Source: Afifellaceae bacterium
GTDB taxonomy: Bacteria > Pseudomonadota > Alphaproteobacteria > Rhizobiales > Afifellaceae
Assembly: GCA_028281235.1 (NCBI GenBank)
Contig: JANQKG010000024.1
Coordinates: 64,569-128,568 of the forward strand
Direction: 5' to 3'
Length of the DNA stretch: 64,000 nt
In this document: piece by piece, positions 4,953-54,698 of the stretch
Layout: every line of letters begins with the position of its first letter
Numbering within the stretch: position 1 is the first letter of the stretch
Notes under the pieces: generated by a model
Seen by the model: the letters and a program-made list of their open reading frames with translations, nothing else
Database searches by the model: none
Told to the model about the DNA's origin: nothing
Translations under genes and position numbers: made by a program

Positions 4953-6053
4953 ATGATGCCCCCTCCCGCACGCGACCTCACCGTGCTCGGCATCGAGACG
5001 AGCTGCGACGAGACGGCGGCGGCCGTGGTGCGGCGGGAGCAAGCGGGAGGCGGCACCGTGCTGTCCGACATCGTGCTCAGCCAAGTGGAGGATCACGCGG
5101 CCTTTGGCGGTGTGGTGCCTGAAATCGCCGCGCGCGCCCATGTGGCGGCGCTCGATGGGGTCGTGCGAGCCGCCATGCGCGAGGCGGAGGCCGATTGGCA
5201 CAATCTTGACGCCGTGGCCGTGACGGCCGGACCGGGCCTCATCGGCGGCTTGCTGGCCGGGTTGATGACGGCGCGTGCCGTGTCAGCGGCGCGCGGGCTG
5301 CGGCTCATGCCGCTCAACCATCTGGAGGGGCACGCGCTCACCGCGACGCTGACGGACAAACTCGCCTTCCCCTATCTCCTGCTCCTGGTGTCGGGCGGTC
5401 ATTCACAGCTCGTTGCCGTGGAAGGTGTCGGTCGCTATCGCCGTTTGGGCACGACAGTCGACGACGCGCTCGGCGAAGCCTTCGACAAATGCGCCAAACT
5501 GCTTGGCCTAGGCTTTCCGGGCGGACCGCAGGTGGAGCGCGCCGCGGCGCGTGGCGATGCGACGCGTTTTGCGCTGCCGCGACCGCTTGCCGGCACGCCG
5601 GGCTCAGACTTTTCCTTCTCCGGGCTGAAGACGGCGCTTCGACAAGAAGCGGAAGGCATCGCACCGCTCAGCGATCAGGATGTGGCGGACCTTGCGGCGT
5701 CCTTCCAGGCCGCAGCCGCCGATGCGGTCGTCGATCGATGCCGCGCCGCGCTCCGCGCCTTCGACGAGACCATTGGCAAGCCGCCAACCGCTCTTGTCGC
5801 TGCCGGCGGGGTCGCGGCCAATCAGACGATCCGCGCGCGGCTTGACGCGCTTTGCCGCGAGGCAAGCGTGCCGTTCGCCGTGCCCCCGCCGCATCTTTGC
5901 ACCGACAATGCCGTTATGATCGCCTGGGCCGGAGCGGAACGCCTGGCGGCCGATCTGGCGCCGGACCCGGCGCTGCCGGCGCGCGCGCGTTGGCCGCTCG
6001 ACGAGACTGCCGCGGCCATAGTGGGCGGCGGCGCCAAGGGTGCCAAAGCGTGA
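4953..6053 (+). CDS. tsaD: tRNA N6-adenosine threonylcarbamoyltransferase (Kae1/Gcp family)
   Basis: 366 aa. Motifs [16 protein letters not shown] and GGVAAN; divergent from hemC. Confidence 0.92.
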
Positions 6054-32228: not shown

Positions 32229-32564
32229 TGACCATCCCCGTCTGCTTCACGCCGCCGCCATGCCCGGGCCGGCCGGCATATGATTGAACGTCGCGCCCTC
32301 GCGCTCCCCGCTCGCAGGAGCGGGCCCCGCAGCGCGTCTCGCCTCGCCGCGACACCGCCCTTTCGCGGTCGGCGACACGATAGCCGCATAGCCGCCCCTG
32401 GAGCAACACATGGCATCGTGAACGCCGGAAAGCCCGGTTTCCGGGGCGCGACAGAGGCCAGTCCGACGGCCGGGCACGGCTTCCTTGTGGACAGGTCCGC
32501 GGCGAGCTTATATAAACCGCGCGCTTTGTCGGGGCTGCCCTTTGTCCAGCGTCCGGGGAAGACA

Positions 32565-32640
<76 letters not shown>

Positions 32641-32750
32641 TTTCTCTCAATAAATTCAGTGTATTGTGCGGCCGGTTGATTTTTGAAGGCGGCCGAATTA
32701 CCCTTACACAATCGTTGCACAATTTCACACTTCAACGGCGGTCGTGGCGC

Positions 32751-33902
32751 ATGGCGGAGAAGCACACGATCCTTGGCGGCAAAATTCACGTCTACAAGCG
32801 GCCAGGCAGCCACGTCTGGCAGTGCTCGACCTACCTTGCCGGCAAGAACCGACGGGTTACGACGAAGGAAGAGAGCCTGAAGCGGGCGAAGGACTTCGCC
32901 GAGGATTGGTATCTAGGTCTCCGAGGCAAACAGAGCCGGGGCGAGGTCGTCGGAGAGAAAACGTTCGCGCAGGCGGCGGAAAAATTCACCGAGGAATACG
33001 AGGTGATGACCGGCGGCGAGCGCAACGCGAAATACGTCCAGGATCACCAAGCCCGACTGAGAAACCACCTCATTCCCTACTTCGGGAGGATGGGGCTGTC
33101 GCAGATCAAGACCGGCACGGTTCAGGAATACCGCATGCACAGACTCGATGGCGAGGACGACAGTCGCCGGCCATCTCGAAGCACGCTCCACCATGAGATC
33201 GTTACGTTGCGCCAGGTTCTGAAAACTGCGGCGCGTCATGGCTGGCTTGAGCATCTGCCAGACATATCGGAACCCTATCGGGCGTCAGCGAAGATCAGTC
33301 ATCGGGCGTGGTTTTCACCCGAGGAATATCGACAGCTCTACGGCGCGACGCGCGAGAACGTGAAGCAGTCCAAAGGCCGGCCGTGGCGATGGGCTGCTGA
33401 ACAGCTCCACGATTATGTGCTGTTCATGGCCAACACGGGCATTCGCCCCGACGAGGCGAATGGGCTTCAATACCGTGATGTTTCCATCGTTGACGACGAT
33501 GCGACCGGCGAGACAATTCTTGAGGTAGAGGTGCGCGGGAAGCGCGGCGTTGGCTTCTGCAAGAGCACGACTGGTGCCGTTCGGCCTTTCCAGCGGCTCA
33601 CGAAGCGAAACAAACCACAACCGAGCGACCTTGTCTTCCCCGCAAACCACAAACGGCAGTTCAACCGCCTACTCGACGAGCTTGGCCTGAAGCTCGATCG
33701 CGACGGCAATCGAAGGACGGCCTACAGCCTAAGGCACACATACATTTGCCTGCGCCTCATGGAGGGCGCGGACATCTATCAGATCGCCAAGAACTGCCGC
33801 ACGAGCGTTGAGATGATCGAGAAATACTACGCCTCCCATATCCGCACCAATCTCGATGCCGCGGCGATCAACGTGCGGCGGAAAGGCAAGAGCGCGGCTT
33901 AG
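32751..33902 (+). CDS. Tyrosine-type site-specific integrase
   Basis: MAEKHTILGGKIHVYKRPGSHVWQ... The catalytic region has ANTGIRPDEA, AYSLRHTYICLRL and VEMIEKYYASH. ORF 32280..33902 reads through the tRNA, so ATG 32751 is used. Confidence 0.9.
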   Translation: MAEKHTILGGKIHVYKRPGSHVWQCSTYLAGKNRRVTTKEESLKRAKDFAEDWYLGLRGKQSRGEVVGEKTFAQAAEKFTEEYEVMTGGERNAKYVQDHQARLRNHLIPYFGRMGLSQIKTGTVQEYRMHRLDGEDDSRRPSRSTLHHEIVTLRQVLKTAARHGWLEHLPDISEPYRASAKISHRAWFSPEEYRQLYGATRENVKQSKGRPWRWAAEQLHDYVLFMANTGIRPDEANGLQYRDVSIVDDDATGETILEVEVRGKRGVGFCKSTTGAVRPFQRLTKRNKPQPSDLVFPANHKRQFNRLLDELGLKLDRDGNRRTAYSLRHTYICLRLMEGADIYQIAKNCRTSVEMIEKYYASHIRTNLDAAAINVRRKGKSAA

Positions 33903-34059: not shown

Positions 34060-34443
34060 CTACTTGTCCCCAGACGCCTTGCGCTTCTTCTGCACGACGA
34101 ATTTGATCTCGTAGATGTTGGTCTTCCCCTGCCCTCGTCGGATGATCTTGACCAACCCGGCCCGCTCCAGCTCCTTGATGAACTCGTTAACCCGCGGCCG
34201 GCTCATGCCGATCTGGCTGGCGAGGCGTTCCTGACCGGGGAAGCAGTTATTGTTGTGCCAAGCATATTGGAGGAACTTTGCATAGGTGACCTTGGCGCCG
34301 ATGCTGAGCTCGGGATTGTTGAGAATGAAGTTGGGAACCTGCGTGAAGCCGCCCAGCGCAACCGGGTCTTTGGTTGCTAGGCGGATGTTGTGCTCCCTAA
34401 GGACATCGCCAATGTGTTTCGGTGCTCCGTCGGCGTGATCCAT
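34060..34443 (-). CDS. Winged-helix DNA-binding protein (replication-initiator/regulator-like)
   Basis: GGFTQVPNFILNNPELSIGAKVTYAKFLQYAW...CFPGQERLASQIGMSRPRVNEFIKELERAGLV; 127 aa. Confidence 0.75.
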   Translation of the reverse strand: MDHADGAPKHIGDVLREHNIRLATKDPVALGGFTQVPNFILNNPELSIGAKVTYAKFLQYAWHNNNCFPGQERLASQIGMSRPRVNEFIKELERAGLVKIIRRGQGKTNIYEIKFVVQKKRKASGDK

Positions 34444-35476: not shown

Positions 35477-37270
35477 ATGAGTTCCAGCTCCTTAAAGAAG
35501 ATTAAGGACCCAATCCACGGATACGTCTACTACTCCGCTCTTGAGGAGGCTTTTATGAGCCACCCCCTCCTCCTGCGGCTGCACCACGTGCGCCAAAACG
35601 GCGGCGCTTTCCTAACATACCCCAGCATGCGGGTTCATCGCTTCGAGCATTCCGTTGGAGCAATGCACATAGCCGGCCACCTTTTCTTGTTCGGCACGCG
35701 CTTTTCGCCGGACGCCGAGCTCCACGATGCGTACAAGTCAATCTTGGCAAAGATTTTTCCAGACCTATCCATCGACGATCTGCGTACCGCCATCCTCAAG
35801 GCTGACAACCAGCAACGCGAGACAGGCCTCTCAAGGCTTCAGACAGATGGCTTGTACCGACTCCATGACCTCATTGATATCGACGACGACGCGATTTTTG
35901 CGGAGTTGCTCTTCTTCCAGGCAGTCCGACTTGCAACGCTAATGCATGATATCGGCCATCCGCCATTCTCACATACGTTTGAGACCGCGTTGAAGCAGCT
36001 GGAAAAAGACCGATACCGAGATCACGAGACAGTTGGAATAGATTTGCTAAACTACTTAAGCCACGATCTAAAAAACTACACAGATGAAGTTATATATTAT
36101 CTTGGTCGCACCGTGATATCAATTGCAAAGGTAATATTTGATGGCGAGCACGAGCTCCATAAATACGTTCAGGGTCTTTCTGACATCGTCTCCAGCGATA
36201 TCGACGCCGACCGCCTCGATTATGTCAGGCGCGATGCATCGGCCGCCGGACTCACCACAAATGCCTATGATCTCGGTCGGCTGTACGATGCTGTAAAATT
36301 GATATCAAACCCCAGCGGAGCTGTTGAATTGCAATGGACCGCCGCTGCACTCAGCACGATAGAAGCTTTCTTTAGCGTCCGCTTTCATCTTTATCGCTGG
36401 GCGCTATGGCATCACCATGTTGTTCGGCAGAATATGGCGTTAATTCTGGTTACGAGGCTTCTTTGGTCGCTGTTGCGCAAGAACAATGAAACTCTTGGCC
36501 CATTACATCTAGACCTCATAGAGCTGGTCCGCATAAGCAGAAACCCCTCAAGGATAGGCGATTACTGGTATTTCACTGACTATTATTTACTTGATAATTA
36601 TGCTAAAATACTCAGCGCGCTAGATAAGGATGAGATGAAGTGGATTGGAAAAGACGAGAACTGGGGTGAACTGGCCGATCTTTATAAATTCTTGCGCACA
36701 TTCTTATATCGAGAAAAGAAGTGGCTTTCACCTTTTTGGAAACGGCCTGACGACTACGTGATTTTCTCTAACCAGGTTATAGAGCAAGAAAGTGACGATA
36801 GTGCTGTACAGTTTAACGATATGCTAGGCAAGGCGTATCAAAGATTGGTCGCCGAAGACGCAAATGAAGCAGAAGGGAGCCCAGAAGCAGCGGCTCATGG
36901 GGACAAATACGATGACTACCTCAGCTTCCGCTTTTGCGAGCGGTTGGAGCATGCAATCAACGCTTCGTTGAAGCCGCATGGCTGTAGGTGCCGAGCGTAT
37001 TATCTCGCGAAATTCAAGCCGGCCCCAACGAAGCTTCAGCTTCTCGGTCGAGACGACGAACCAATGGCGTTGGGCACGCTTTCGCCCTCGGTGGCAGCGT
37101 TGAGCGAGGCTTGGAGAGCGTTGCCGCACCTTTGGCTCTTTTTAGAGTACAAGGCTTTTGGGGACAACGGGGAAACACTAAACCCTGACGTTGTGCGCCA
37201 ACGTGTCAAGCCGGTAGGAGTCTACTCAGTTGTCGCCGAGTCGCTTCGAAACTGCCTACTAAACGGATAG
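35477..37270 (+). CDS. SAMHD1/dGTPase-type HD-domain (d)NTP triphosphohydrolase-like protein with a long C-terminal extension
   Basis: IKDPIHGYVYY...LLRLHHVRQNG...RVHRFEHSVG (His), LMHDIGHPPFSH (HD) and DADRLDYVRRD (Asp), in the order typical of COG1078/SAMHD1-like enzymes. 597 aa; AT-rich. Confidence 0.85.
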   Translation: MSSSSLKKIKDPIHGYVYYSALEEAFMSHPLLLRLHHVRQNGGAFLTYPSMRVHRFEHSVGAMHIAGHLFLFGTRFSPDAELHDAYKSILAKIFPDLSIDDLRTAILKADNQQRETGLSRLQTDGLYRLHDLIDIDDDAIFAELLFFQAVRLATLMHDIGHPPFSHTFETALKQLEKDRYRDHETVGIDLLNYLSHDLKNYTDEVIYYLGRTVISIAKVIFDGEHELHKYVQGLSDIVSSDIDADRLDYVRRDASAAGLTTNAYDLGRLYDAVKLISNPSGAVELQWTAAALSTIEAFFSVRFHLYRWALWHHHVVRQNMALILVTRLLWSLLRKNNETLGPLHLDLIELVRISRNPSRIGDYWYFTDYYLLDNYAKILSALDKDEMKWIGKDENWGELADLYKFLRTFLYREKKWLSPFWKRPDDYVIFSNQVIEQESDDSAVQFNDMLGKAYQRLVAEDANEAEGSPEAAAHGDKYDDYLSFRFCERLEHAINASLKPHGCRCRAYYLAKFKPAPTKLQLLGRDDEPMALGTLSPSVAALSEAWRALPHLWLFLEYKAFGDNGETLNPDVVRQRVKPVGVYSVVAESLRNCLLNG

Positions 37271-37284
37271 GCGAAATCCAAAAC

Positions 37285-38379
37285 ATGATCACTATCGTCG
37301 TCGGCGCACAGTACGGGGGAGAGGGGAAGGGAAAGGTCTCTGCTTTCCTCGCCTCAGCTCAGCGATTTGATATTGCGTGTCGCTGCGGTGGCCCGAATTC
37401 GTCGCACACAGCGGTGCACAAGGGTAGAGAATTCAAACTCAGGATGATGCCGACCGCGGCTATTGTCGACCCATGGGTCTCCGTTGTGTTCGCGGCTGGG
37501 ACTCTTTTGCACGTTCCAACGCTTTTCGACGAAATCCGTTTGATAGGCTTTCGAGGAAACCTTCTTATTTCGCCATATGCCGGCATTATTACCGATGAAA
37601 CTGTTGCTAAACAGCGCTCTGACAATCGGTATGAGGCAATCGGCTCAACGCTGACCGGTACAGGGTATGCTGCTGCAGACAGATGTTTGCGTAAGCTGCC
37701 CCTTGCAAGGGAATTCTCAGAACTGAGTCCTTACTTATTTGACGTCCATGAGTTTTTGTTTGCGTCTATCAAGAACAGTCGAAATATTCTTATTGAAGGT
37801 CACCAGGGTTTCGGTCTCTCGAATTATCATGGCGACTATCCGTATGTTAGCAGCCGCGATTCAACGGCGGCAGCTATGCTTTCTGAGCTAGGCGTCGGAC
37901 CTCTTCAGAAGACCATACAGGTTGTGCTTGTAGCAAAGATTTTCCCGACCCGGAACCACCGCGGTGCACTCGGAGAGGAGCTCACGGAGGAGGAGGCCTC
38001 TGCGATGGGAATCCGTGAATATGGGGGCGGTTCATGGGGAATACCGAATCGCAGGCGACGGGTCGGCATCTTCGACTTCGAGCTCGTTAGGCGTGCAGCG
38101 GCCGCAAACTCGGCGACATGCATCGCACTGACCGGTGCTGACTATCTCGACAAAGCGCTCGCGGGCCAGCAAATCGCGACTCAAAACGAGCATTTGGATC
38201 AGTTCGTTTGTGCTCTTGAGAAGACAATCTCGCCGACACCAGTAAGGTTCGTCTCAACGGGGCGTGACACCTCCCACATGTTTGAACTAAAGCCCGCCAG
38301 CTCGAAGAAGCCAAAGCGGCCCAGACGAGTCAAGCGACCCGAGAATGTCCGTGATCTGTTCGAAGGGGGGCTACACTAG
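37285..38379 (+). CDS. Divergent short adenylosuccinate-synthetase-family (PurA/PurZ-like) protein
   Basis: IVVGAQYGGEGKGK (compare PurA GTQWGDEGKGK), GGPNSSHT (NAGHT), IGSTLTGTGYAAADR (GTTGRGIGPAYEDK), IEGHQGFGLS (EGAQG), GDYPYVSSRDST (GTYPYVTSS), NRRRRVG (GRRRRTGW), STGRDT (STGPDR). 364 aa; starts 14 nt after the HD gene. Confidence 0.8.
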   Translation: MITIVVGAQYGGEGKGKVSAFLASAQRFDIACRCGGPNSSHTAVHKGREFKLRMMPTAAIVDPWVSVVFAAGTLLHVPTLFDEIRLIGFRGNLLISPYAGIITDETVAKQRSDNRYEAIGSTLTGTGYAAADRCLRKLPLAREFSELSPYLFDVHEFLFASIKNSRNILIEGHQGFGLSNYHGDYPYVSSRDSTAAAMLSELGVGPLQKTIQVVLVAKIFPTRNHRGALGEELTEEEASAMGIREYGGGSWGIPNRRRRVGIFDFELVRRAAAANSATCIALTGADYLDKALAGQQIATQNEHLDQFVCALEKTISPTPVRFVSTGRDTSHMFELKPASSKKPKRPRRVKRPENVRDLFEGGLH

Positions 38380-38547: not shown

Positions 38548-38778
38548 ATGAGCAACATATTGGACCAGGGTATTGACGCGGTTCGAACTCTTTCGGCGGA
38601 ACGGCAGGATGCTGTCGGCGAGCTGCTCCTAAATATCGCTGAGCCCGATGCCGACGAGAGCTACACCCTGACGCCCGCACAGCTCGCCAGCATTCAGCAA
38701 GCAATTCGTCAAGCTGACCGCGGCGAACTCATCTCCGCCAACGAAGTGGAAGCGTCCTGGCAATCACGTGGGGTATGA
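38548..38778 (+). CDS. Type II antitoxin (partner of the ParE/RelE-family toxin)
   Basis: 76 aa, acidic. ATGA overlap with the downstream toxin gene. Family not assigned. Confidence 0.65.
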   Translation: MSNILDQGIDAVRTLSAERQDAVGELLLNIAEPDADESYTLTPAQLASIQQAIRQADRGELISANEVEASWQSRGV

Positions 38779-39059
38779 CGCTGTGGTATACGCCGGAAGC
38801 GACGGCCCATTTAGATAACATTCACGCCTACATACAAAGTGACAACCCTGAGGCTGCCGCTGCGGTCGTTACACGCATTCACGCAACCGCGCGAGCACTG
38901 GCCTTCTTCCCTCATATGGGGCGTGTCGGACATCTCTCCGGAACGCTTGAACACAAGGTCAAGCAGCTTCCGTACGTCATCGTCTATCGAATTGAGATTG
39001 GAGATACCGATCAACTTGTCATCCTGGGCGTCTATCACACGCATCAAAAACGCAACTAA
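38775..39059 (+). CDS. ParE/RelE-family type II toxin
   Basis: 94 aa: YTPEATAHLDNIHAYIQSDNPEAAAAVVTRI...FPHMGR...YVIVYRIE...LVILGVYHTHQ, the plasmid-stabilisation ParE pattern. Confidence 0.8.
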   Translation: MTLWYTPEATAHLDNIHAYIQSDNPEAAAAVVTRIHATARALAFFPHMGRVGHLSGTLEHKVKQLPYVIVYRIEIGDTDQLVILGVYHTHQKRN

Positions 39060-39365
39060 TAGCGACCCTTCGCCTGCTTTCTGAACTATCCAATGTCGCC
39101 CATGGACACTCGACGCTCGGCACATCGCACTGCCCCCAACTGCGGCAGAGCTGGGGGCTTGTTATTGTCATTAGTAGTTCACTTGGCTTCTAGATTTAGC
39201 AACGCAGCGACTTCGCACCTTCGGATGGTCAACCTTGCAGATGAGGCAAAAAGCTGCAATCTAGGACTGCAGCTTCGGTCTATCGTCGATAGCCGGATTC
39301 AGATTTTGCCAAGGTCTCTAGTCGGCACTGCAAATATCTGAGGATGGCTCCGTTGAGAGCAGTTG

Positions 39366-39887
39366 ATGATGGGTGCGCCTTATACTTTTCAGATCAAGAA
39401 TCCTGAAGAACTGGACATCAACGAGCTAGAGTCCTTCTGCGCCTTTGTGAAGGGCGGAGGGCAAGTTGTCTCCGGCGTAGCGAAGCGGCTGAAGGAGATA
39501 GGGAAAGTTATTGTGCTCGTTCGCTTGGCTAATGAACTCGCCGCAGTCGGCGCCCTCAAAGTTCCTATGGCCCGATATAGGAGTAATGTGTTCAAGAGTG
39601 CCGCCGCAGTTGAGCAGCCAACCGACTATCCGATCGAGCTCGGCTGGGTCGTAGTCGCCGAACGGCACCGCAAGCAAGGGCTATCGAGTCAGATCGTCAA
39701 GGTTCTCTTGGAGGTCTCGGATTCAGAACAAGCCAACGTTTATGCCACCTCGGACGTAGAAAAAGGTGCGATGCACCGGTCTCTTGAGCGAAACGGCTTT
39801 GTCAAAGCCGGAGCCCCTTATCGATCGGAGTTGGACAATGACCGCTTGCAGCTATTTGTGCGCAAGCGCTTCCCAGAACCGCACTAG
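39366..39887 (+). CDS. GNAT-family N-acetyltransferase
   Basis: LGWVVVAERHRKQGLSSQIVKVLLE (motif A) ...MHRSLERNGFVKAG. The ORF opens with TTG at 39363. Confidence 0.7.
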   Translation: MMGAPYTFQIKNPEELDINELESFCAFVKGGGQVVSGVAKRLKEIGKVIVLVRLANELAAVGALKVPMARYRSNVFKSAAAVEQPTDYPIELGWVVVAERHRKQGLSSQIVKVLLEVSDSEQANVYATSDVEKGAMHRSLERNGFVKAGAPYRSELDNDRLQLFVRKRFPEPH

Positions 39888-39925
39888 TCACCAAGCAGCA
39901 CCGTTTGTTTCTGAAGGCGTCATAG

Positions 39926-40357
39926 ATGCGGAGTACCCGATTTGAAGTCAAACTTCTTGTGGCCAGAGCAGACGAGGGCGATGTCAATCGCGACCTCGTC
40001 CGAATTCACTACGATGACAGAATTGGCCTAAAAAGTGGAATTATATGCCTTATCTCAAATAAGGACAGTTTAAGTTCTTCATCAAAGTATTTCGTTTTGA
40101 GGGGTCTCCCACGTGGCACCCCAAGCACTATCCAGATTGACGAAGGGGCAAGGGAGGTACTGGGCGTGAGTTTAGGGCGTCAGGCCGTGTTTCAAATCGA
40201 GGAAGCCGGTTGGTGGGGAGCACTTCAGTGGGCCTGGTCGGCGACCGATCCCGCGTACCGAATTGCGGCAAAGCTTGGCGTGCTTTCCTTTGGCCTGGGG
40301 TGTCTTTCGGTTGTACTTGCCGGTGTCTCGATTACTCTGGCATTTATGTCGAGGTGA
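39926..40357 (+). CDS. Hypothetical protein: N-terminal beta-barrel-like domain plus C-terminal TM segment
   Basis: 143 aa. C-terminus IAAKLGVLSFGLGCLSVVLAGVSITLAF is hydrophobic. No family recognised. Confidence 0.45.
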   Translation: MRSTRFEVKLLVARADEGDVNRDLVRIHYDDRIGLKSGIICLISNKDSLSSSSKYFVLRGLPRGTPSTIQIDEGAREVLGVSLGRQAVFQIEEAGWWGALQWAWSATDPAYRIAAKLGVLSFGLGCLSVVLAGVSITLAFMSR

Positions 40358-41045: not shown

Positions 41046-42047
41046 CTACTGCGCCAGCGTCCGCGACTTCCCTTCTCCATCCTCTATCGGCACTAAAAGT
41101 ATGTCGCCGCGGTGCTTCCTTATCGTCTGGAAGTCGGTGAAGAGGAAGCGGATCGGCGGCACCGAATGCGGCCTGCCGGCTAGTCGCCGGCGATACATGC
41201 TCTGCATCTCCTTCACCCGCTTCGGGCCCGTCGTGACGGTGAGCACCTGGAAGGTCGGAATGCCGAACTCCTTGCGGTGCACGCCAGTCTGGTAGGCATA
41301 GGCGTAAACCAGGAACTTGCGAAGGATTGAAGTCTCCTTCCAGAACTTCTTGGTCTTGGTCTTGCGGTCGTTCACATCGATTGTCTCGGTGCCGCGATCA
41401 ATCTCAAGGAAGATGGAGCGGCGGTTCTTGCCCTCTTCCCTGTTCGAGTATCGAAGCATGAAGAAGCCGTCGGGGATCGTGCCTTCCGTCTCGGTGTAGC
41501 CGTGCCAGCTCACGCGCGCTGCGACCGTGTTCGGAAGTGAGTTGCGCTTCAGGATGTGCGGCGCGTAGCGCTCGTAGATTTGGTCGGGATAGAGGAACTC
41601 AATCCCGTCATGCGTGGCAGCCGAGGTCCGCGTTTGCAGAATGAAGCGGGTCTGCTCCAGGCCATGCTGGATATAAGGCGCACTGAGGCTGGTGCTCCGC
41701 TCGCGCTGACGGCGCGACTTTGTGGGCAGTCCGTAGCGCTCGGCTAGTCGTTCGGCACCGCGACGGCCGAGCGTGTAGGCCTTGGCTAGCGACCCGCCGC
41801 CCTGGACATAGATTCGCTCAATCTGCCGCAGGCGATGAAGATACTGATTGTCCCTCAGCAGTTTTAGGCGGCGGCCGATTTTGGTGGCGCTGCGATGCGG
41901 CAGAAGCGAGCGGATCGCATGAGCGTCAATTAGGTCGTGGCGATAGACTTCAAGCAATATGAGATCATCATCGTCGGTGATGGCGATCGGCGAAGGGTCG
42001 GCGGGAATGTCGTAGTGCGAGTAGACGGCTTGGGTGGCTGTCGTCAT
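41046..42047 (-). CDS. Replication-relaxation family protein (putative relaxase)
   Basis: 333 aa. N-terminal wHTH-like LLEVYRHDLIDAHAIRSLL...RRLKLLRDNQYLHRL and the later PDGFFML...IFLEIDRGTE block. Last gene of the minus-strand transfer operon. Confidence 0.7.
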   Translation of the reverse strand: MTTATQAVYSHYDIPADPSPIAITDDDDLILLEVYRHDLIDAHAIRSLLPHRSATKIGRRLKLLRDNQYLHRLRQIERIYVQGGGSLAKAYTLGRRGAERLAERYGLPTKSRRQRERSTSLSAPYIQHGLEQTRFILQTRTSAATHDGIEFLYPDQIYERYAPHILKRNSLPNTVAARVSWHGYTETEGTIPDGFFMLRYSNREEGKNRRSIFLEIDRGTETIDVNDRKTKTKKFWKETSILRKFLVYAYAYQTGVHRKEFGIPTFQVLTVTTGPKRVKEMQSMYRRRLAGRPHSVPPIRFLFTDFQTIRKHRGDILLVPIEDGEGKSRTLAQ

Positions 42048-42068: not shown

Positions 42069-43835
42069 TCAGCCGAGCTCGGCGTTATCCACGTCCGCGT
42101 AGGGCGGTGGTTGATAGCCGCCCTCATGCGTCCGTGCGGTTTCATAGAGGCGGGTGTATTCCAATCGCATGCGCTGACGCGCTTGATCCGCCGGCACGGT
42201 GTAGGGACTGGCGGCAAGGACGCGCTCCTTGAAGCGCTCAATTGTCTCCGTCGGCACGACAACATCCGGCACGTCAAAGGTGGTGATGTCGAAGCTCGGC
42301 TCGGCTGACCCCTTCACCACGGCATGGCGCGGCGGAATGCTCCGAAGTCGTGACACCGCCAGGTGGCGGACATTTTCAAGGCCGTGCACACCGCCAACGA
42401 AATCCTGCAGAATCGGCTCCAGCGCCTCCGACGCCCCTTCCGAATGCGAGGAAGTATCGACCGTGCCGCTCGAATGCGCATGGGCCACTCCCCCACCATG
42501 GGCGTCTACTGACGCGGCGGCGCTGCTCGACGTGACCGTGCGCGTGCCGATTGGAAAACCGTCGGCGTCGTAGGCTTGCGATAGACCCGTGCCGACGGAG
42601 GCGCTTGAGGCGTGCGTCTGAAACGCGCTCTCCGACACGGTGTCGATTTCGATATGCGAAATCGATTCGCCGTGGCTCCAATTCTTCAGCCAGATGCGCC
42701 GGTAACCGGCAACGCCCGGTTTGGTGAGCGCATGGATGGGGATTTCAAGGTCGTATTCGGTGCGAAACAGCTGGTCGGCCATGACGACAGCGTCTTCATC
42801 AGAGATACCGCCGAAGATCACTTTGTTCTGAATACCCATCACGCCGTGATAGATCGATGAACCCTGCTCGCGCAGTTGTTCCAACCATTGATGTGCAAGG
42901 ATGACGTGAAAGCCGCGCTTCCGCGAGCGCGCCAGAATCTGTGCGATGTCGCGCGTAACGAAGCTGCCGCATTCGTCGATGTAGGCGTAGAACGGCTTTT
43001 GCTCGGCGGTGCGGGGATCGCGACGCTGGGCGCAATAGAACATCTCCCGCACGAACAGCGCGCCAAAGGCGCGAGCCGGGTCTTCGCCCATGGCTTCCGG
43101 CGAAAGGTTGATGAGGACGATTTCGCCGTTGTCCATTGCACGACGAAAATCGATCGGCTGGTCGTAAGCGGCGAGCGTCTCGCGGATTTCCTCGTCGCTT
43201 AGAAGTTCACTGAAACGCCGACGTGATCCGCCGAACTCAGAAATGTGTTCGCGCTTCGCATCCTCGGCCGTCGCTTTGTAGCCATCCCAAATTTCAGCAA
43301 TGATGGGGTTCTCAATTTCGCGCGTCAGATACGAAACGATGCGATAGGGATCGACCGTGCTCGTCAGATAGAAAGCCTCGGCCAGCGTATAGCCATGGCC
43401 GATGAGCACATCGAATATCGCGCGTATGGTGGTGCGGATGCTGGGCGTGTTGCGTGAGTCTTCCCCACCCCACACCTGCGCCAGTGCTTCGATGACATTG
43501 TCGATGCGATGCCGGGGTTTCTCGCCGGCATGGACATAGAGCGGGTTGAAGCGAAAGCGCCAATTCGGATTGGTCGGATCAAACAAATGAATTCGCTTGT
43601 GGCGGTCAATACGATGGCGGGAACACCATGCGACGATGCTGTCGTAGAGAGCGCCCTCGGGATCGATCAGGCAGACACCATGTCCGGCCATGATGTCCTC
43701 GCGGATGCAGTGCTCAAGGAACTTGGACTTGCCCTGACCGGAAGCCCCCATAACGTGCAGATGCGTGGCGCGGCGTTCTGTGCTGAGGCGCACACCGCGG
43801 CCATCGGAATGGCCGACGCGGATGGGGCGCGGCAC
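42069..43835 (-). CDS. TraD/VirD4-like type IV coupling-protein-family P-loop ATPase
   Basis: Walker A VMGASGQGKSKF; Walker B-like FYAYIDECGSF; RKRGFHVILAHQWLEQL. 588 aa; GTG start. Confidence 0.8.
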   Translation of the reverse strand: MPRPIRVGHSDGRGVRLSTERRATHLHVMGASGQGKSKFLEHCIREDIMAGHGVCLIDPEGALYDSIVAWCSRHRIDRHKRIHLFDPTNPNWRFRFNPLYVHAGEKPRHRIDNVIEALAQVWGGEDSRNTPSIRTTIRAIFDVLIGHGYTLAEAFYLTSTVDPYRIVSYLTREIENPIIAEIWDGYKATAEDAKREHISEFGGSRRRFSELLSDEEIRETLAAYDQPIDFRRAMDNGEIVLINLSPEAMGEDPARAFGALFVREMFYCAQRRDPRTAEQKPFYAYIDECGSFVTRDIAQILARSRKRGFHVILAHQWLEQLREQGSSIYHGVMGIQNKVIFGGISDEDAVVMADQLFRTEYDLEIPIHALTKPGVAGYRRIWLKNWSHGESISHIEIDTVSESAFQTHASSASVGTGLSQAYDADGFPIGTRTVTSSSAAASVDAHGGGVAHAHSSGTVDTSSHSEGASEALEPILQDFVGGVHGLENVRHLAVSRLRSIPPRHAVVKGSAEPSFDITTFDVPDVVVPTETIERFKERVLAASPYTVPADQARQRMRLEYTRLYETARTHEGGYQPPPYADVDNAELG

Positions 43836-45224: not shown

Positions 45225-46544
45225 CTACACTTCGCGCCTCAGCCAACGCGCCATGCGGGTTTCGGTATTGGCGCGGTCCCGGCCAAACCGCATGCGCGAC
45301 TGGTTCAATACGTTTGCGCGATGTCTGTGCGCCGGCGTTGTTTCGGGCACAGTCCTGCCAACGAAGGCCGCACTCCCCTGCCCTGCCTGCGTCAGGCGGA
45401 CGCAGATTTCGCCGAGCGAAAGCTCACGCAGAGTGCGCGCTGAGTAGTCCCCAATCTCCTTCGTCAAACGATCCGCGTCGTCGGCCGACACCCGAAACGA
45501 GATGATGGTGCCCACATTGCCAAAGATTGCGTCGCGCACATCGTCCGGCGCCTGCGATAGATATTGTCCGGCAACGGTCAGAGTGAGGCCATATTTGCGG
45601 ACTTCGGAGAGCATGGAGGCAAAGGCGTCAGTGGTGAAATTGTGGAACTCATCGACGAAGAGATGAAAGTCCGCACGCTTAGCCTCTGGCATTGAGGCCC
45701 GACGCATCGCCGCGTGCTGAAGGCCAGAAACAATCATCGAGCCGAGCAGATTGGCCGGCTCTTCGCCAAGTGTTCCTTTTGAAAGCGGCGCGATAAGGAT
45801 GTGCCCCTTCTCCATGATCGCCGACAAATCGACGGTGGGCTTCCACTGGCCAACGATGTTGCGCACAAACGGGTTAGCGAGAAACTGCCCGATCTTGTTC
45901 TGCGCGGGGCTCAGATATTCGGCGAGCTGACGCTCATTCCAGCCACAAAACTCATCAACGAAGAAGCCGCGCACACGCGGGTCTTGGATGTGACGGATCA
46001 CCCGCTCTCGGTAGTCCTGACGAACAAGCACAAGCGGTATGGCGAGGAAGCTCGGTCGCAAGCTGTCGGGCGCATCGAGGAGTGCTGCGACCGTGTTGTA
46101 GAGGATGTATTCCAGCCGCGGGCCCCAACTGTCGCGCCAAATATGCTTGAAGGCAGCCGTCAGGTTGCTCGCGACCAACGCTCGCTCGTCAACTGGCACG
46201 CGATAGAAGGGATTGAGCGCCACCGGCCGCTCGGCGTCAGTCGGGTTGACCACCACGACATCATCCACGCGATGCGGCGGAACAGCATCGAGCACGGCGT
46301 GAGCCAAATCGCCATGCGGATCGATCAGCGCGCATCCGTTGCCTGCCTCAATGTCCTGAGCAAGCAGCTGCTGGAGAAGCGTCGATTTACCTGTGCCCGT
46401 CTGCCCGATGACAAAGACATGCCGTCGCCGGTCCATACACGAAAGGGTCAACGGCACTGCGCCGCCCCAACCCTCGCGAAGACCAATCTGAAAACGCTCC
46501 ATACGCCAAAGCCAGCCACGCCCCACCAAAGACCTGACACGCAT
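45225..46544 (-). CDS. Second TraD/FtsK/HerA-like P-loop ATPase (DNA-translocase family)
   Basis: Walker A VIGQTGTGKSTLL; Walker B FHLFVDEFHNF; RKYGLTLTVAGQYLSQ. Paralogous architecture to 42069..43835. An alternative start is MERFQ at 46502. Confidence 0.8.
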   Translation of the reverse strand: MRVRSLVGRGWLWRMERFQIGLREGWGGAVPLTLSCMDRRRHVFVIGQTGTGKSTLLQQLLAQDIEAGNGCALIDPHGDLAHAVLDAVPPHRVDDVVVVNPTDAERPVALNPFYRVPVDERALVASNLTAAFKHIWRDSWGPRLEYILYNTVAALLDAPDSLRPSFLAIPLVLVRQDYRERVIRHIQDPRVRGFFVDEFCGWNERQLAEYLSPAQNKIGQFLANPFVRNIVGQWKPTVDLSAIMEKGHILIAPLSKGTLGEEPANLLGSMIVSGLQHAAMRRASMPEAKRADFHLFVDEFHNFTTDAFASMLSEVRKYGLTLTVAGQYLSQAPDDVRDAIFGNVGTIISFRVSADDADRLTKEIGDYSARTLRELSLGEICVRLTQAGQGSAAFVGRTVPETTPAHRHRANVLNQSRMRFGRDRANTETRMARWLRREV

Positions 46545-46817: not shown

Positions 46818-47888
46818 ATGTCTTCCCATCGTATTGACTTCAAACATGTCCGCGACCACGCTTCGATTGAAACCGTGCTCGCGGCGTATGGGATCACCTT
46901 GCAGAAGGACGGCGGTAGGTCGGGACAACACAAGTGCCTTTGCCCCTTCCACGAAGATCACAAACCGTCGATGAAGGTCAACACCGACCGGAACATCTAT
47001 CACTGCTTTGTCTGCGACGAGGGCGGCAACGTTCTCGATCTGGTGATGCAGCTAGAGGGAGTGGATATTCGCGCGGCGGCTAAACAGGTCGCAGAGACTT
47101 GTGGAATCGGCACGTCGGCGACATCGCCGCGTAAACAGCGGAGCCAAAAGGGCTTCAAAGGCTCGGGCTCTGCTGCGGGTGGAGAGCGTGGCAGTGCCAA
47201 GCAAGGTCGCAATCAGCGAAACAAAGCCGGAAACGCCGAACACAAGTCGACTTCCGACGAGAGTGCTGGCCGAGCAGATGAGAAGCAATGCAACGAGCCA
47301 CTGACGTTCGAACTGAAGAACCTGATCACCGATCATCCGTTTATAGCTGAGCGCGGTGTCTCGGAAGAGATGCAGGCAGAGTTCGGAATCGGTGTCGCGA
47401 CACGCGGGATCATGAAAGGCCGTCTGGTCTTCCCTATCCACAACGCGAAGGGCGAGCTTGTCGCTTATTGCGGCCGGCACATCGGCGACGAACCGCTGAA
47501 GGACGAGCCGAAATACAAGCTTCCGCCGAACTTTCGAAAGGAACTGGAGCTGTTCAACTGGCATCGAGTTAAAGACCTCGCCACCAAGCGCCCGCTCGTG
47601 ATCGTGGAGAGCTACTTCTCGGTCGTGAAGCTGCATGGAATGGAAGTGCCGTGCGTCTCACCGATGGGTCGAACGCTGTCGGGCATGCAATTCGACCTTC
47701 TCGAAGAGGCCGGCATCAAGCATGTCGTTCTATTGTTCGACGGCGACGATCCCGGACGCGCCGCGACCACCACAGCTGGCCGGCAGCTCCTGGCTGCGAA
47801 CATAAGCGTCACTGCACCCGTCGTTCCTGAAGGCTTTAAGCCACACGGCACGGGTGTGGAGGAACTTCGAACTTTGCTGAGCTGCTAG
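46818..47888 (+). CDS. DNA primase (CHC2 zinc finger plus Toprim)
   Basis: CLCPFHEDHKPSMKVNTDRNIYHCFVCDEGGNVLDLV (CHC2) and the Toprim block VIVESYF...VVLLFDGDDPGRAA. AGGAG lies upstream. Confidence 0.85.
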   Translation: MSSHRIDFKHVRDHASIETVLAAYGITLQKDGGRSGQHKCLCPFHEDHKPSMKVNTDRNIYHCFVCDEGGNVLDLVMQLEGVDIRAAAKQVAETCGIGTSATSPRKQRSQKGFKGSGSAAGGERGSAKQGRNQRNKAGNAEHKSTSDESAGRADEKQCNEPLTFELKNLITDHPFIAERGVSEEMQAEFGIGVATRGIMKGRLVFPIHNAKGELVAYCGRHIGDEPLKDEPKYKLPPNFRKELELFNWHRVKDLATKRPLVIVESYFSVVKLHGMEVPCVSPMGRTLSGMQFDLLEEAGIKHVVLLFDGDDPGRAATTTAGRQLLAANISVTAPVVPEGFKPHGTGVEELRTLLSC

Positions 47889-52841: not shown

Positions 52842-52935
52842 GTGATTTTGACGAGCTCCGGAGCGCAGTCGCCATCTAAGGCGATGTCCACGAAGGATTC
52901 GGCAGAAGCCAGCATTGCAGGCAGAGGCTCGATCA

Positions 52936-54652: not shown

Positions 54653-54698
54653 ACTGAAAATCCGCGTGTCGGTGGTTCGATTCCGCCCCTGGGCACCA
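54653..54698 (+). repeat. attR core (duplicated 3' tRNA-Phe fragment)
   Basis: 46/46 identity with 32595-32640. The preceding sequence does not complete a tRNA. Confidence 0.9.

Follow-up and report, generated by a model that had tools for sequence, protein, structure and literature searches.

We describe here two adjacent genes that are best explained as an operon-like cassette travelling as cargo of integrative mobilizable elements. Gene 1 encodes a SAMHD1-type HD enzyme and gene 2 a short ligase of the PurA fold in which the catalytic aspartate of PurA is replaced by glycine. We predict that the cassette is probably a nucleotide-pool weapon against phages or other mobile DNA. The explanation as a whole, a mobile-element cassette acting on the purine (deoxy)nucleotide pool in an exclusion- or abortive-infection-type defence, is the best that we can offer, and we hold it tentatively, with a confidence somewhat short of even. 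As a system the cassette is apparently undescribed. The searchable literature contains no description of a SAMHD1-type HD enzyme paired with a PurA-fold ligase, as an earlier note on this DNA had suspected, and PADLOC v2 assigns the pair to no named system (gene 2 has no match, gene 1 only a local 25-bit dGTPase match). The observation made in that note is confirmed, while its interpretation is partly supported.

The window, the whole 64-kb stretch of DNA analysed here, contains a precisely bounded 22-kb element at a tRNA-Phe gene (Table 1). The exact 46-bp repeats at its ends have an expected number by chance of 0 (shuffles), and with the integrase, relaxase, coupling ATPases and primase they bear out the proposed mobile element. 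A longer integrase ORF from 32280 spans the tRNA and was rejected as an over-call. Both cassette genes were confirmed as ORFs, co-directional and 14 nt apart. The pair has a GC content of 0.516, compared to 0.563 for the island and 0.66 and 0.633 for the flanks. Of all 1-kb windows in the 64 kb, the five with the lowest GC content (0.466-0.492) start at 35701-36101, within gene 1, in line with the earlier claim that the pair occupies the AT-richest part of the island; the spot counts given for it (20/60 at 36541, 36/60 at 5401) are exact. The ParE neighbour with its putative antitoxin is likewise there, a PF05016 match accompanied by a small upstream ORF (together 38548-39059, with a 4-nt overlap). 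No canonical purA was found within the window.

Table 1. Features of the tRNA-Phe element and its cassette (positions in the window)
Feature	Position	Strand	Evidence or remark
tRNA-Phe (GAA)	32565..32640	+	integration site; ARAGORN
attL, 3' 46 nt of tRNA-Phe	32595-32640		exact 46-bp direct repeat
Tyrosine integrase	32751..33902	+	Phage_int_SAM_3 and Phage_integrase matches, weak
HTH_36 / RepA_N-like DNA-binding protein of the element	34060..34443	-	Pfam
Gene 1, SAMHD1/EF1143-type HD dNTP triphosphohydrolase-like, 597 aa	35477..37270	+	PF01966, AF2, Foldseek, profiles
Gene 2, short PurA-fold ligase, 364 aa	37285..38379	+	PF00709, AF2, Foldseek, motif alignment, tree
Putative antitoxin	38548-38778	+	upstream of ParE ORF; no Pfam match
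ParE-family toxin	38775-39059	+	PF05016, E = 1.2e-15
Replic_Relax-family relaxase-like protein of the element	41046..42047	-	PF13814, E = 1.3e-12
TrwB/TraG-type coupling-protein-like ATPase	42069..43835	-	TrwB_AAD_bind, T4SS-DNA_transf, TraG-D_C matches
Second TrwB/TraG-type P-loop ATPase	45225..46544	-	TrwB_AAD_bind E = 7e-11; TraG-D_C
DnaG-type primase of the element (zinc ribbon and Toprim)	46818..47888	+	Pfam
attR, exact 46-bp copy of the tRNA-Phe 3' part	54653..54698	+	far end of the island

Gene 1 had been credited with a complete H...HD...D set in SAMHD1/dGTPase order. The motifs are present (RFEHSVG, LMHDIGHPPFSH and DADRLDYVRRD), the expected match to the HD family PF01966 is found with 30.9 bits (cut-off 22), and fold and catalytic residues are SAMHD1/EF1143-like. 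Among 36 homologues R55, H58, H157-D158, H161, H166, H183-E184, D243, D245, R246, D248, Y249 and D253 are invariant, and every metal, catalytic and triphosphate-binding residue of SAMHD1-type enzymes is kept, the correspondence to SAMHD1 and EF1143 being confirmed by profile alignment. The AF2 model (pLDDT 91.8) finds EF1143, BT4208 and SAMHD1 as top Foldseek matches, and profile comparisons give E-values of 1e-34 to 1e-47 against these three, compared to ~1e-5, and only locally, for Dgt-type dGTPases. Judged by its residues, gene 1 looks catalytically competent. It shares fold and the full catalytic constellation with SAMHD1, Enterococcus faecalis EF1143, Aquifex 2hek and Bacteroides BT4208, but at ~15-17% identity; it is ~150 aa longer and has an Asn where SAMHD1-type enzymes have Leu/Val directly after the conserved Gln (Q149-L150 in SAMHD1). 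The catalytic core covers ~residues 1-330, and the C-terminal half (~330-597) is specific for a subfamily of ~560–650 aa in which it is conserved. Standalone HD relatives cover ~52-60% of gene 1 and match residues ~1-330 only. The single-gene antiphage dGTPases (PADLOC dGTPase; NF041026/NF003701; the octameric Vdg, PMC13519002) belong to the same HD superfamily and defend by dNTP depletion under allosteric nucleotide control. Gene 1 differs from them by its SAMHD1/EF1143 branch, the extra C-terminal half and an obligatory partner gene, and it reaches only 18.6-25 bits on their models, where the NCBIfam cut-offs are ~383-400 bits.

Models, fold, motifs and tree support the assignment of gene 2 to the PurA/PurZ superfamily, as one of its divergent members. 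The earlier note had aligned it motif by motif with PurA. The match to Adenylsucc_synt (PF00709, 162 bits) and the shorter length (364 compared to ~430 aa in bacterial PurA) agree with this, but the catalytic base does not: the P-loop reads GGEGKG instead of GDEGKG, and this exchange of Asp13 for Gly is invariant in the family. Asp13 is kept in 99% of PurA sequences and Ser is found there in 100% of phage PurZ (PMC12884076); in S-2L PurZ this Ser sits beside the 2-NH2 of dGMP (PMC8342488). Gene 2 stays below both NCBIfam PurA equivalog cut-offs (303.7 against 368 bits for the archaeal-type model NF003295, and 194 against 395 bits) and below that for PurZ (157.7 against 300 bits). Its best sequence and structure match is archaeal-type AdSS, represented by Pyrococcus horikoshii PH0438 (187 bits, TM 0.82/0.88, ~36% identity), with which it has its deletions in comparison to bacterial PurA in common. 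However, archaeal-type AdSS has GDEGKG and IGTT...GPA motifs and is a housekeeping gene, whereas gene 2 is mobile cargo. With the AF2 model (pLDDT 88.3), PurZ0 (7vf6) ranks fourth in Foldseek behind archaeal AdSS, and PurZ follows. K15, N38, H41, Q174, R133/R136, R258/R259 and D286 are invariant among 38 homologues, and gene 2 thus appears catalytically competent. The nucleotide loop IGST...(G/A)A is common to gene 2 and PurZ. The aspartate loop is remodelled (EYGGGSWGIPNRRRR compared to EYGATTGRRRR of PurA), and an invariant Asn (R223-N224) replaces the sugar-gating Val of PurZ. Hence, the use of aspartate by gene 2 is not assured, nor is that of a deoxy substrate.

The earlier note had left it to other genomes whether the HD gene is a constant neighbour. 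The complete pair occurs in 13/13 distinct non-Patescibacteria loci of the clade, always on the same strand, the gap ranging from -4 to +20 nt, and the HD partner is kept down to 29-34% HD identity (13 loci). The two proteins also diverge in a correlated manner (Mantel r = 0.56, p = 2e-4, 11 loci). A ligase partner was found for none of 47 distant HD relatives, and an HD protein 28% identical to gene 1 stands alone. Patescibacteria encode Gly-type enzymes, 50-53% identical, without any HD partner, indicating that the ligase can work alone. The lineage is rare, with only 179 of 1.84 billion representative clusters reaching E <= 1e-30, and sporadic, with only five alphaproteobacterial species representatives out of 185,579 carrying it.

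Strict pairing, overlapping start and stop codons and co-divergence would also fit a regulated dNTPase, in which the HD protein is the sole effector and the ligase makes or consumes a nucleotide ligand that acts on it allosterically, either restraining a toxic dNTPase until infection or activating it on phage-derived (d)NMPs. The model for this is Clover, a two-gene system of an HD dGTPase effector, CloA, and an enzyme making a nucleotide derivative, CloB; CloA alone is toxic and is inhibited by the product p3diT (PMC12265719). Similarly, dAMP allosterically regulates the antiphage dGTPase Vdg (PMC13519002). The conserved C-terminal half that is missing from standalone relatives speaks for this reading as well, and a nucleotide cyclase fused to the HD protein in one subfamily member suggests signalling. 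However, Clover is an analogy and not a homologue, since CloB is a Pol-beta nucleotidyltransferase and not a PurA-fold ligase, and CloA- and Dgt-type dGTPases reach only ~1e-5 against the gene 1 family. Moreover, ligases of the wider clade occur in multi-enzyme pipelines (kinases, dNK, DCD-like proteins, exonuclease) that look metabolic rather than regulatory. We regard regulation of this kind as unlikely, but worth serious consideration.

Genes for transfer and integration prevail around the pair, which in nearly all cases rides on relaxase/TrwB/integrase elements. Its neighbours include integrases, serine recombinases, TrwB/TraG, Replic_Relax, ParB and ArdC, while defence genes (OLD/GajA-family ATPase, GajB, SIR2, AAA_13/AAA_15, methyltransferases, a ThiF-E2-BubE cluster) are found in some loci only. 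Leading regions of conjugative elements are reported to be rich in anti-defence genes. The pair often adjoins the genes for relaxase and coupling protein, ParB_N and ArdC, the last an anti-restriction gene, and it might be a module for establishment or counter-defence, expressed on entry and neutralizing recipient immunity or reshaping the nucleotide pool for the element. This is improbable: dNTP hydrolysis by SAMHD1-type sites would hurt the element's own replication too, PurA-type ligases are part of no known anti-defence mechanism, and the Asp13-less pocket speaks against a re-amination of IMP/dIMP after deaminase-based immunity. Quite improbable, too, is an addiction module with the HD dNTPase as toxin and the ligase as antidote, maintaining the element in the manner of a toxin-antitoxin system. 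Such a module is suggested by the tight, translationally coupled two-gene architecture, by classical toxin-antitoxin pairs beside the cassette (ParDE in the window, MazE/PIN and VapBC-type in relatives) and by the precedent of a partner relieving dNTPase toxicity (PMC12265719). Yet each protein is a large enzyme whose active site is fully conserved, in contrast to typical antitoxins. The gene order, with the putative toxin ahead, is atypical of type II systems, and a differential-stability signal is not evident.

The earlier note had compared the pair to PurZ and DatZ of phages, a 2-aminodeoxyadenylosuccinate synthase and an HD dATP triphosphohydrolase. In phage Z-clusters PurZ is found with DatZ, with or without MazZ, and PurZ0 with the dUTPase-fold DutZ (PMC8342488, PMC12884076). 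The likeness stands, and goes further than the note could tell, insofar as an Asp13-less short PurA-fold ligase lies beside an HD-superfamily dNTP triphosphohydrolase, and gene 2 has the small residue at the Asp13 position and the IGST...AA loop of PurZ (PMC8342488, PMC12884076). Orthology does not stand. Gene 2 has Gly and not Ser, does not exceed 33% identity to phage PurZ/PurZ0, lacks the RVGG(N/T)SG insertion of PurZ, and in the tree its clade is separate from phage PurZ, not nested within it, with a deep placement that is without resolution. Gene 1, of 597 aa and SAMHD1-type, has no sequence similarity to the ~170-aa DatZ. Thus, the resemblance is one of logic, not of orthology. The setting differs as well, an integrative mobilizable element instead of a phage, and only 4 weak relatives were found among 2.9 million viral contigs. 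The actinophage PurZ0 with DutZ/DmtZ likewise joins a short PurA-fold ligase to a dNTP-hydrolysing enzyme (PMC12884076), and the guanine-specifying Asp of the NTP site is kept in both ligases (LTMLD in PurZ0 of phage Wayne, LTGAD in gene 2). The dUTPase fold of its partner, however, is closer to clusters of PurZ-like and DCD-like proteins than to the HD pair. Such gene clusters belong to a wider clade. Among the 150 closest representative sequence clusters the Asp13 position is Ser in 94, Gly in ~15 and Asp in 10, and in 35-38 loci of the wider Gly clade the ligase is associated with genes for dCTP-deaminase-like proteins, dNK, kinases and exonucleases. The gene clusters of this Gly/Ser PurZ-like clade mirror the phage arrangements of PurZ with DatZ and of PurZ0 with DutZ. 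The PurA paralogues of 7-deazapurine pathways are short as well and recruited to aminate a non-standard purine nucleotide. We take these to be the ToyG-type enzymes of the toyocamycin pathway. One such paralogue, which lies on a plasmid of Rhizobium leguminosarum with folE and purB on its two sides and adjoins queE/queC, keeps Asp13 (QWGDEAKG), has its own PurB in a biosynthetic cluster and is expected to use an IMP-like substrate; the pair described here is without que genes or purB.

Could the pair then be a cellular counterpart of the Z-cluster that makes a 2-aminoadenine-type deoxynucleotide for element or cell DNA? The enzyme logic and the PurZ-type traits of gene 2 agree with this, and for phages host PurB and kinases finish dZTP synthesis and common polymerases accept Z (PMC8342488). 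However, homologues of MazZ, DpoZ and DatZ are absent from the pair in the neighbour lists. The Z-cluster is toxic in E. coli (PMC8342488), gene 2 stands apart from PurZ with a different aspartate loop and sugar-gate residue, and no rationale is known by which an element sitting in the chromosome should alter all DNA of the cell; we give this biosynthetic role a slim chance. Ordinary purine metabolism, with gene 2 as a spare purA or one gained by horizontal transfer and the HD gene as an unrelated neighbour, is very improbable. Homologues are annotated as adenylosuccinate synthase, and gene 2 has the fold and most of the ligand-binding residues of AdSS, but it falls below the PurA cut-offs, its family misses Asp13 in every member and occurs in strict linkage with a single HD subfamily (13/13 loci), and it is extremely sporadic mobile-element cargo of foreign GC.

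We therefore return to the mobile-element cassette that acts on the purine (deoxy)nucleotide pool. As we infer its substrates, product and coupling, gene 1 would be the effector, an active dNTP triphosphohydrolase of the SAMHD1/EF1143 type that breaks down dNTPs, and gene 2 an active PurZ-related ligase, probably GTP-dependent. The exchange of Asp for Gly would open the pocket of gene 2 at the purine 2-position, which makes a guanine-type (2-substituted) nucleoside monophosphate the likely substrate in place of IMP, with dGMP or GMP as the best candidates. The product would be an N6-substituted (succinyl-type) nucleotide that is formed irreversibly. A triphosphohydrolase yields nucleosides and not the monophosphates used by a PurA-type ligase, hence the two enzymes do not catalyse consecutive steps, and no MazG/DUF550-type dGTP pyrophosphatase was found among the listed neighbours of the pair. 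Rather, gene 1 would hydrolyse triphosphates and gene 2 would drain the monophosphate pool or make a non-canonical nucleotide. The defence role is read from context, chiefly from the mobile-element backbone, with defence genes contributing in some loci. Together the two enzymes would collapse or divert the deoxypurine supply of replicating foreign DNA, and the outcome would be a defence of the abortive-infection or exclusion type that benefits both the element and its host.

The HD protein gene (gene 1) and the PurA-like ligase gene (gene 2) are co-directional open reading frames 14 nt apart, and they are carried by an integrative mobilizable or conjugative element at a tRNA-Phe gene (see the table). 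An earlier note on this DNA had placed the pair inside a mobile element, in its AT-richest part and beside a ParE/antitoxin pair, and all of this is borne out. The island has exact 46-nt repeats and encodes an integrase, a relaxase and TrwB/TraG ATPases, a small open reading frame and a ParE toxin gene lie next to the pair, and the five lowest-GC 1-kb windows of the 64 kb begin at 35701-36101, within gene 1. The GC content is 0.563 across the island (22 kb), 0.66 and 0.633 outside and 0.516 in the pair; the spot counts made earlier (20/60 and 36/60) are exact, and the three motifs quoted for gene 1 are all present in it. A listed open reading frame of 540 aa (32280-33902, plus strand) traverses the tRNA-Phe gene, and the integrase most likely starts at 32751. 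A scan for promoters and terminators of the pair returned sites no more frequently than in shuffled sequence.

Features of the element and of the comparison loci (positions without a locus name are those of the window)
Feature	Position	Strand	Remarks
tRNA-Phe gene	32565-32640		3' 46 nt copied exactly at 54653-54698; 0 expected by chance
Integrase	32751-33902	+	likely start 32751 (MAEKHTILGG...)
HTH_36/RepA_N-like protein			element gene
Gene 1, HD protein	35477-37270	+	597 aa
Gene 2, PurA-like ligase	37285-38379	+	364 aa
Small ORF and ParE toxin	38548-39059
HTH_3 regulator			element gene
Three further island genes	39363-40357 and 52915-53964	+	174 aa, no Pfam match; 143 aa, sub-threshold CDC48_N; 349 aa, weak HNH_2
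Replic_Relax relaxase	41046-42047
TrwB/TraG-type ATPases, two	42069-43835 and 45225-46544
DnaG-type primase	46818-47888
1263-aa ORF	48011-51802	-	largest cargo gene of the element; no Pfam match at E <= 0.001
OLD/GajA/AriA-family ATPase-nuclease, Tateyamaria sp. SN3-11 chromosome (NZ_CP180422.1)	L013:11610-13091		E about 1e-47; 2.5 kb downstream of the pair
Cyclase-HD fusion	L061:8001-10298		class III adenylate/guanylate cyclase (~196 aa), N-terminal; PurA-like gene follows
Patescibacteria MAG ligases	L009:7974-9023, L010:8001-9011		Gly-type, alone
Clusters with distant Gly-type ligases (examples from L014-L057)	L026:6377-10502, L047:5899-10739, L040:5310-9997
Kinase-ligase fusion, Agrobacterium fabrum 1D132 plasmid pAt1D132a	L129:5452-7053		cultured strain
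Cluster with short Asp-type PurA paralogue, Rhizobium leguminosarum CC283b plasmid pCC283b_4	L128:5366-12929

Judged by its sequence and its model, gene 1 is a SAMHD1/EF1143-type enzyme with predicted dNTP triphosphohydrolase activity. The HD match that had been expected was found, PF01966 recognising the HD core with 30.9 bits, and the SAMHD1/dGTPase-like metal set (H58, H157-D158, D245) is invariant in 36 homologues; in SAMHD1 and EF1143 the aligned motifs are RFEHS, HDxGH and DxD. Invariant or nearly so in the same homologues are R55, H58, R151, H157, D158, H161, H166, E169, H183, E184, D243, D245, R246, D248, Y249, R252 and D253. Among them R55, H161, H166, H183-E184, R246, Y249 and D253 are the counterparts of further catalytic and triphosphate-binding residues, which we take to be R164, H210, H215, H233/E234, K312, Y315 and D319 in SAMHD1 numbering. 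A profile built from the alignment of the 36 homologues was compared with solved structures and matched Aquifex 2hek (E-value 3e-47), EF1143 (4e-40), BT4208 (2e-38) and SAMHD1 (about 1e-34), with Dgt-type dGTPases at about 1e-5. The family consensus pairs with SAMHD1 motif by motif: RLHhirQN...RFeHSLG with RLRYIKQL...RFEHSLG, HDiGHPPFSH with HDLGHGPFSH and iDADRlDYVrRD with IDVDKWDYFARD. The AF2 model (pLDDT 91.8) retrieved 4lrl, 3irh, 2q14, 2hek and SAMHD1 in Foldseek (E 7e-15 to 1e-11, target-normalised TM 0.57-0.73), EF1143, BT4208 and SAMHD1 being the best targets. In the N-terminal QxG motif the conserved Gln is followed by Asn throughout the family (N41, 35597-35599), while SAMHD1, EF1143, BT4208 and 2hek have Leu or Val here. 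Since the Leu of SAMHD1 (L150) presumably helps to exclude ribonucleotides, the sugar specificity of the gene 1 family may differ from that of SAMHD1, which we regard as a lead. Residues ~330-597 are subfamily-specific, as distant relatives cover about 52-60% of the protein and match ~1-330. The sole recognisable extra N-terminal segment in longer HD homologues is a class III cyclase. Viral matches of gene 1 are giant-virus SAMHD1-like proteins and one weak tailed-phage protein only.

Gene 2 gave the Adenylsucc_synt match that was anticipated (PF00709, 162 bits, cut-off 27), yet no curated PurA or PurZ model reached its cut-off: NF003295, the short archaeal PurA, scored 303.7 bits (cut-off 368), TIGR00184 (purA) 194 (395.55), NF038379 (PurZ) 157.7 (300) and NF002223 149.5 (402). 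The closest solved relatives are the P. horikoshii AdSS (187 bits; Foldseek TM 0.82/0.88) and then PurZ0 and PurZ; the AF2 model has a pLDDT of 88.3. The likeness to PurA, described earlier as motif by motif, holds for most catalytic residues, but not for the P-loop, which reads GGEGKG and lacks the catalytic-base Asp13; the aspartate loop is remodelled. Since K15, N38, H41, Q174, R133/R136, R258/R259 and D286, which serve phosphoryl transfer and nucleotide binding, are invariant in 38 homologues, gene 2 is, on this evidence, not a pseudoenzyme and is predicted to be catalytically active. For H41, K15, N38, Q174, R133/R136 and D286 the PurA equivalents are presumably, in E. coli numbering, His41, Lys16, Asn38, Gln224, the Arg between the subunits and Asp333, which specifies guanine. 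At the purine-NTP site gene 2 keeps the Asp (LTGADYLD) that is also present in PurA and PurZ0, while the PurZ of a Vibrio phage has LNFCNYLS instead. We take this Asp to specify guanine, and GTP is thus the likely donor.

Asp13 is lost throughout the gene 2 family. All 38 homologues in the alignment read GGEGKG, and so do the scanned loci wherever the P-loop can be read (47 of 51), in contrast to GDEGKG in Salmonella and Pyrococcus PurA and to G-S-(T/E)-(G/A)-KG in phage PurZ and PurZ0, which have Ser in place of the Gly. This position is diagnostic by the literature: Asp13 is kept in 99% of PurA and replaced by Ser in 100% of phage PurZ, and "Ser or Gly" occurs at this position in a few basal non-phage sequences (PMC12884076). 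In the PurZ of S-2L the Ser adjoins the 2-amino group of dGMP (PMC8342488). Gene 2 and PurZ also have an IGST...(G/A)A loop in common, where PurA has IGTT...GIGPA. The aspartate loop of gene 2, EYGGGSWGIPNRRRR compared with EYGATTGRRRR, retains the RRRR run, and TTG is changed to IPN after a four-residue GGSW insertion. Where an R-V-G motif is expected, gene 2 has an invariant R223-N224-H. The Val of this motif is described as the 2'-OH gate of PurZ (PMC8342488), and with N224 in its place and a remodelled aspartate loop, neither a deoxy substrate nor aspartate as amine donor is assured for gene 2.

An exhaustive HMMER scan of the gene 2 family against 1.84 billion representatives gave 6221 matches at E <= 1e-3 and only 179 at E <= 1e-30; of the best 150 matches, 94 carry Ser at the Asp13 position, about 15 carry Gly and 10 carry Asp. 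We built a neighbour-joining tree (174 sequences, 200 bootstraps), in which the deep branching has no firm order. The HD-associated and Patescibacteria proteins form one clade (bootstrap 94) within a wider Gly-only clade (89 and 77 at successive nodes), and PurZ, PurZ0, the PurZ-like ligases of dCTP-deaminase-like clusters (B-type) and most Ser-type representatives form a separate assemblage (45). The Gly clade is without firm placement relative to the Asp-type short PurA proteins. The earlier assignment of gene 2 to the PurA/PurZ family stands in that it is a divergent superfamily member; in this tree the HD-paired ligases of its clade (A-type) fall outside the PurZ/PurZ0/B-type assemblage. 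Identity of gene 2 to phage PurZ/PurZ0 is at most 33%. A search of 2.9 million viral contigs yielded only four weak relatives, none of them with an HD or B-type partner, and a plasmid search found no A-type pair.

The pairing itself is strict. A full-length gene 1 homologue lies directly upstream of the PurA-like gene on the same strand in 13 of 13 distinct loci, as the reading put forward in the earlier note needed. These are the window (L001/L002), Devosia (L003-L007), Xanthobacteraceae (L008, with the duplicate L064), Methyloligellaceae (L011), Azospirillaceae (L012), Tateyamaria sp. SN3-11 (L013), L061, L063, L123, L124, L125, L126 and L127. The gap between the genes ranges from -4 to +20 nt, with ATGA overlaps in several loci, HD identity to gene 1 goes down to 29-34%, and two loci picked to break the rule, because no HD match had a contig of their length, both carry the pair. 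About 20 of the 27 best HD matches are on contigs equal in length to one with a PurA-like match, and pairwise divergence of the two proteins is correlated (Mantel r = 0.56, p = 2e-4, 11 distinct loci). The distant HD relatives among the metagenome matches listed (<= 34% identity), a negative control and not a census, have a PurA-like neighbour in 0 of 47 cases, and a 28%-identical HD homologue stands alone, without a PurA-like partner. Among the ligases, one Patescibacteria subclade departs from the rule (about 335-350 aa, 50-53% identical to gene 2), whose loci have neither an HD partner nor purine-metabolism neighbours. One of these ligases (L009) adjoins a DUF4238 protein.

The surroundings of the pairs are those of mobile elements with some defence genes, and the term defence island is suggestive at most. 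The commonest of 88 flanking genes at eight loci encode serine recombinases (5), TrwB/TraG (4), tyrosine integrases and Replic_Relax, to which other paired loci add AlpA, ParB_N and ArdC. Defence-type neighbours in some loci include GajB, SIR2, type II methyltransferases and PDC-S04/S06, besides the OLD/GajA/AriA-family ATPase-nuclease of Tateyamaria sp. SN3-11, a cultured strain with a complete genome. AAA_13 flanks the pair in L063 and AAA_15/AAA_21 in L126, and the locus of the cyclase-HD fusion is flanked by a DDE transposase, an integrase, a ubiquitin-like ThiF-E2-Multi_ubiq-BubE cluster, an SDH-type protease and Fic. In Devosia sp. 66-14 and related contigs the pair lies within a copper-resistance and thiol-disulfide cluster (multicopper oxidases, CusF, DsbD, DSBA-like) with no recognisable transfer genes adjoining; at least 23 contigs, from different samples, have this locus.

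Asp13-less ligases are not confined to these pairs. The B-type ligases share 34-43% identity with gene 2, and their hosts are Acidobacteriota, Geobacter and Desulfuromonadales, Dehalococcoidia, Nitrospirota and several archaea. In 35-38 of 51 loci there is a conserved cluster made up of an RNase_H_2 (DEDD exonuclease)-DUF429 protein, in some cases with a P-loop kinase fused to it or encoded after it, the Gly-type ligase, a dCTP-deaminase-like protein (PF22769) whose C-terminus is hydrophobic, a deoxynucleoside kinase (PF01712) and, often, a divergent HTH regulator. PADLOC v2 gave only weak PDC-S44, dCTPase-kinase and VakA matches on these clusters, which look like a second undescribed nucleotide-centred system. 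The B-type ligases have an RVGG(N/T)SG insertion and an E-H-T-x-V-T loop in common with PurZ, whereas the A-type ligases have RNH-RG without the PurZ-specific insertion where B-type reads RVGGNSG. Many Ser-type representatives, with the PurZ-like P-loop GSEGKG, are fused to one or two N-terminal P-loop nucleoside/nucleotide kinases (P0288, P0328 and about 24 other protein clusters); the fusion of Agrobacterium fabrum 1D132 neighbours an AAA ATPase with a UvrD helicase, a metallophosphoesterase, an integrase and VapBC. Because of the HD pairs, the B-type clusters and the kinase fusions, cellular Asp13-less ligases can be said to recur with enzymes that hydrolyse, deaminate or phosphorylate deoxynucleotides. 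This partner logic is common to phage Z-clusters, where PurZ is joined by DatZ, an HD enzyme, and PurZ0 by DutZ, which has a dUTPase fold (PMC8342488, PMC12884076).

A contrasting paralogue is found in Rhizobium leguminosarum CC283b, where a short PurA-like protein that keeps the Asp (QWGDEAKG) is encoded in the order folE, PurA-like, purB, queE, IMPDH-like, nitrile hydratase alpha, queC, HAD and PRTase. By gene content this cluster resembles a toyocamycin/sangivamycin-type 7-deazapurine nucleoside pathway, and, going by toyocamycin biosynthesis, the substrate would presumably be an IMP-like 7-deazapurine nucleotide. Retention of the Asp with an IMP-like expected substrate supports the residue rule for Asp13. 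A 7-deazapurine substrate for gene 2 itself was set aside, with no que genes near any A-type pair.

The component superfamilies and the strategy of attacking nucleotide pools are already known. Neither PADLOC v2 nor the searched literature, however, has this pairing, this HD subfamily or the clade of Gly-type ligases, in agreement with the earlier statement that no described system has this combination; a 2026 dGTPase survey deals only with domain fusions. PADLOC assigned no system to the window, with nothing for gene 2 and local sub-threshold dGTPase matches for gene 1. The PADLOC and NCBIfam dGTPase models cover only about 25-50 residues around the HD motif (PDLC02374, 25.3 bits over 29 residues and not full-length; NF041026, 20.8 bits, cut-off 400). 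Phage Z-clusters sit in phage genomes, while the pair has a non-viral setting; no similarity of gene 1 to DatZ was found, and no MazG or DUF550 is among the listed neighbours of the paired loci.

Our preferred reading, which we hold with slightly less than even confidence, is that the two genes form a module of two enzymes that targets the deoxypurine pool. In it the HD protein would hydrolyse dNTPs, and the ligase, with GTP, would make an N6-substituted product from a guanine-type (d)NMP. The replication of invading DNA would thereby be starved or corrupted, from which the element and its host would both profit. Four points count against such a module: a triphosphohydrolase does not feed a ligase that uses monophosphates, a MazZ-like enzyme is absent, the aspartate loop and the sugar gate of gene 2 are remodelled, and Patescibacteria ligases occur without an HD partner. 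The main rival, which we consider rather improbable, is that, much as in Clover, the product of the ligase binds to the HD enzyme and regulates it allosterically. The Clover precedent (PMC12265719) and the regulation of Vdg by dAMP (PMC13519002) speak for it, as do the subfamily-specific C-terminal half of gene 1, the tight coupling of the genes and the cyclase fused to an HD protein. On the other side, the partner in Clover, CloB (PMC12265719), is a Pol-beta-superfamily nucleotidyltransferase, while gene 2 is PF00709 only, and the pipeline-like B-type clusters favour a metabolic role.

Somewhat less probable still is that the module is the cellular counterpart, or the source, of the phage Z-genome pathway. 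A ligase of PurZ lineage would then make a 2-aminoadenine-type or other non-canonical purine (deoxy)nucleotide and the SAMHD1-type enzyme would clear the competing canonical dNTP, likely in order to poison or mark replicating foreign DNA, with integrative elements of Alphaproteobacteria as carriers. If so, the Gly/Ser PurZ-like clade would be a large unrecognised "nucleotide-rewriting" conflict family and possibly the source of phage PurZ, spanning Acidobacteriota, Geobacter, Dehalococcoidia and archaea, with dCTP-deaminase-like enzymes, kinases and exonucleases. Of the lesser rivals, one is that the pair serves the element in counter-defence or establishment, in line with the ArdC, ParB and relaxase genes often near it; the others see in the pair an addiction module, a means of true Z-type DNA modification or a part of ordinary purine metabolism. 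Gene 2 as the housekeeping purA was rejected as improbable on the loss of Asp13, sub-threshold scores, its place as mobile cargo with foreign GC and its rarity; no other purA was found in the 64-kb window.

Both genes are small enough for synthesis and their active sites are defined (H157/D158 in the HD protein, K15/H41 and G12 in the ligase), and both the pair (Tateyamaria sp. SN3-11) and the kinase-fused relative (Agrobacterium fabrum 1D132) are present in cultured strains. Should the two-enzyme module work as we propose, it would tie nucleotide-depletion immunity, as in SAMHD1, bacterial dGTPases and Clover, to the DNA enzymology of Z-genomes, and a PurA-fold ligase would be a third way in which an accessory enzyme controls or complements a dNTPase. 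Gene 2 may be a new catalyst for N6-substituted 2-aminopurine nucleotides. Asp13-less PurZ-like enzymes would then be widespread outside phages, which bears on the origin of phage PurZ.
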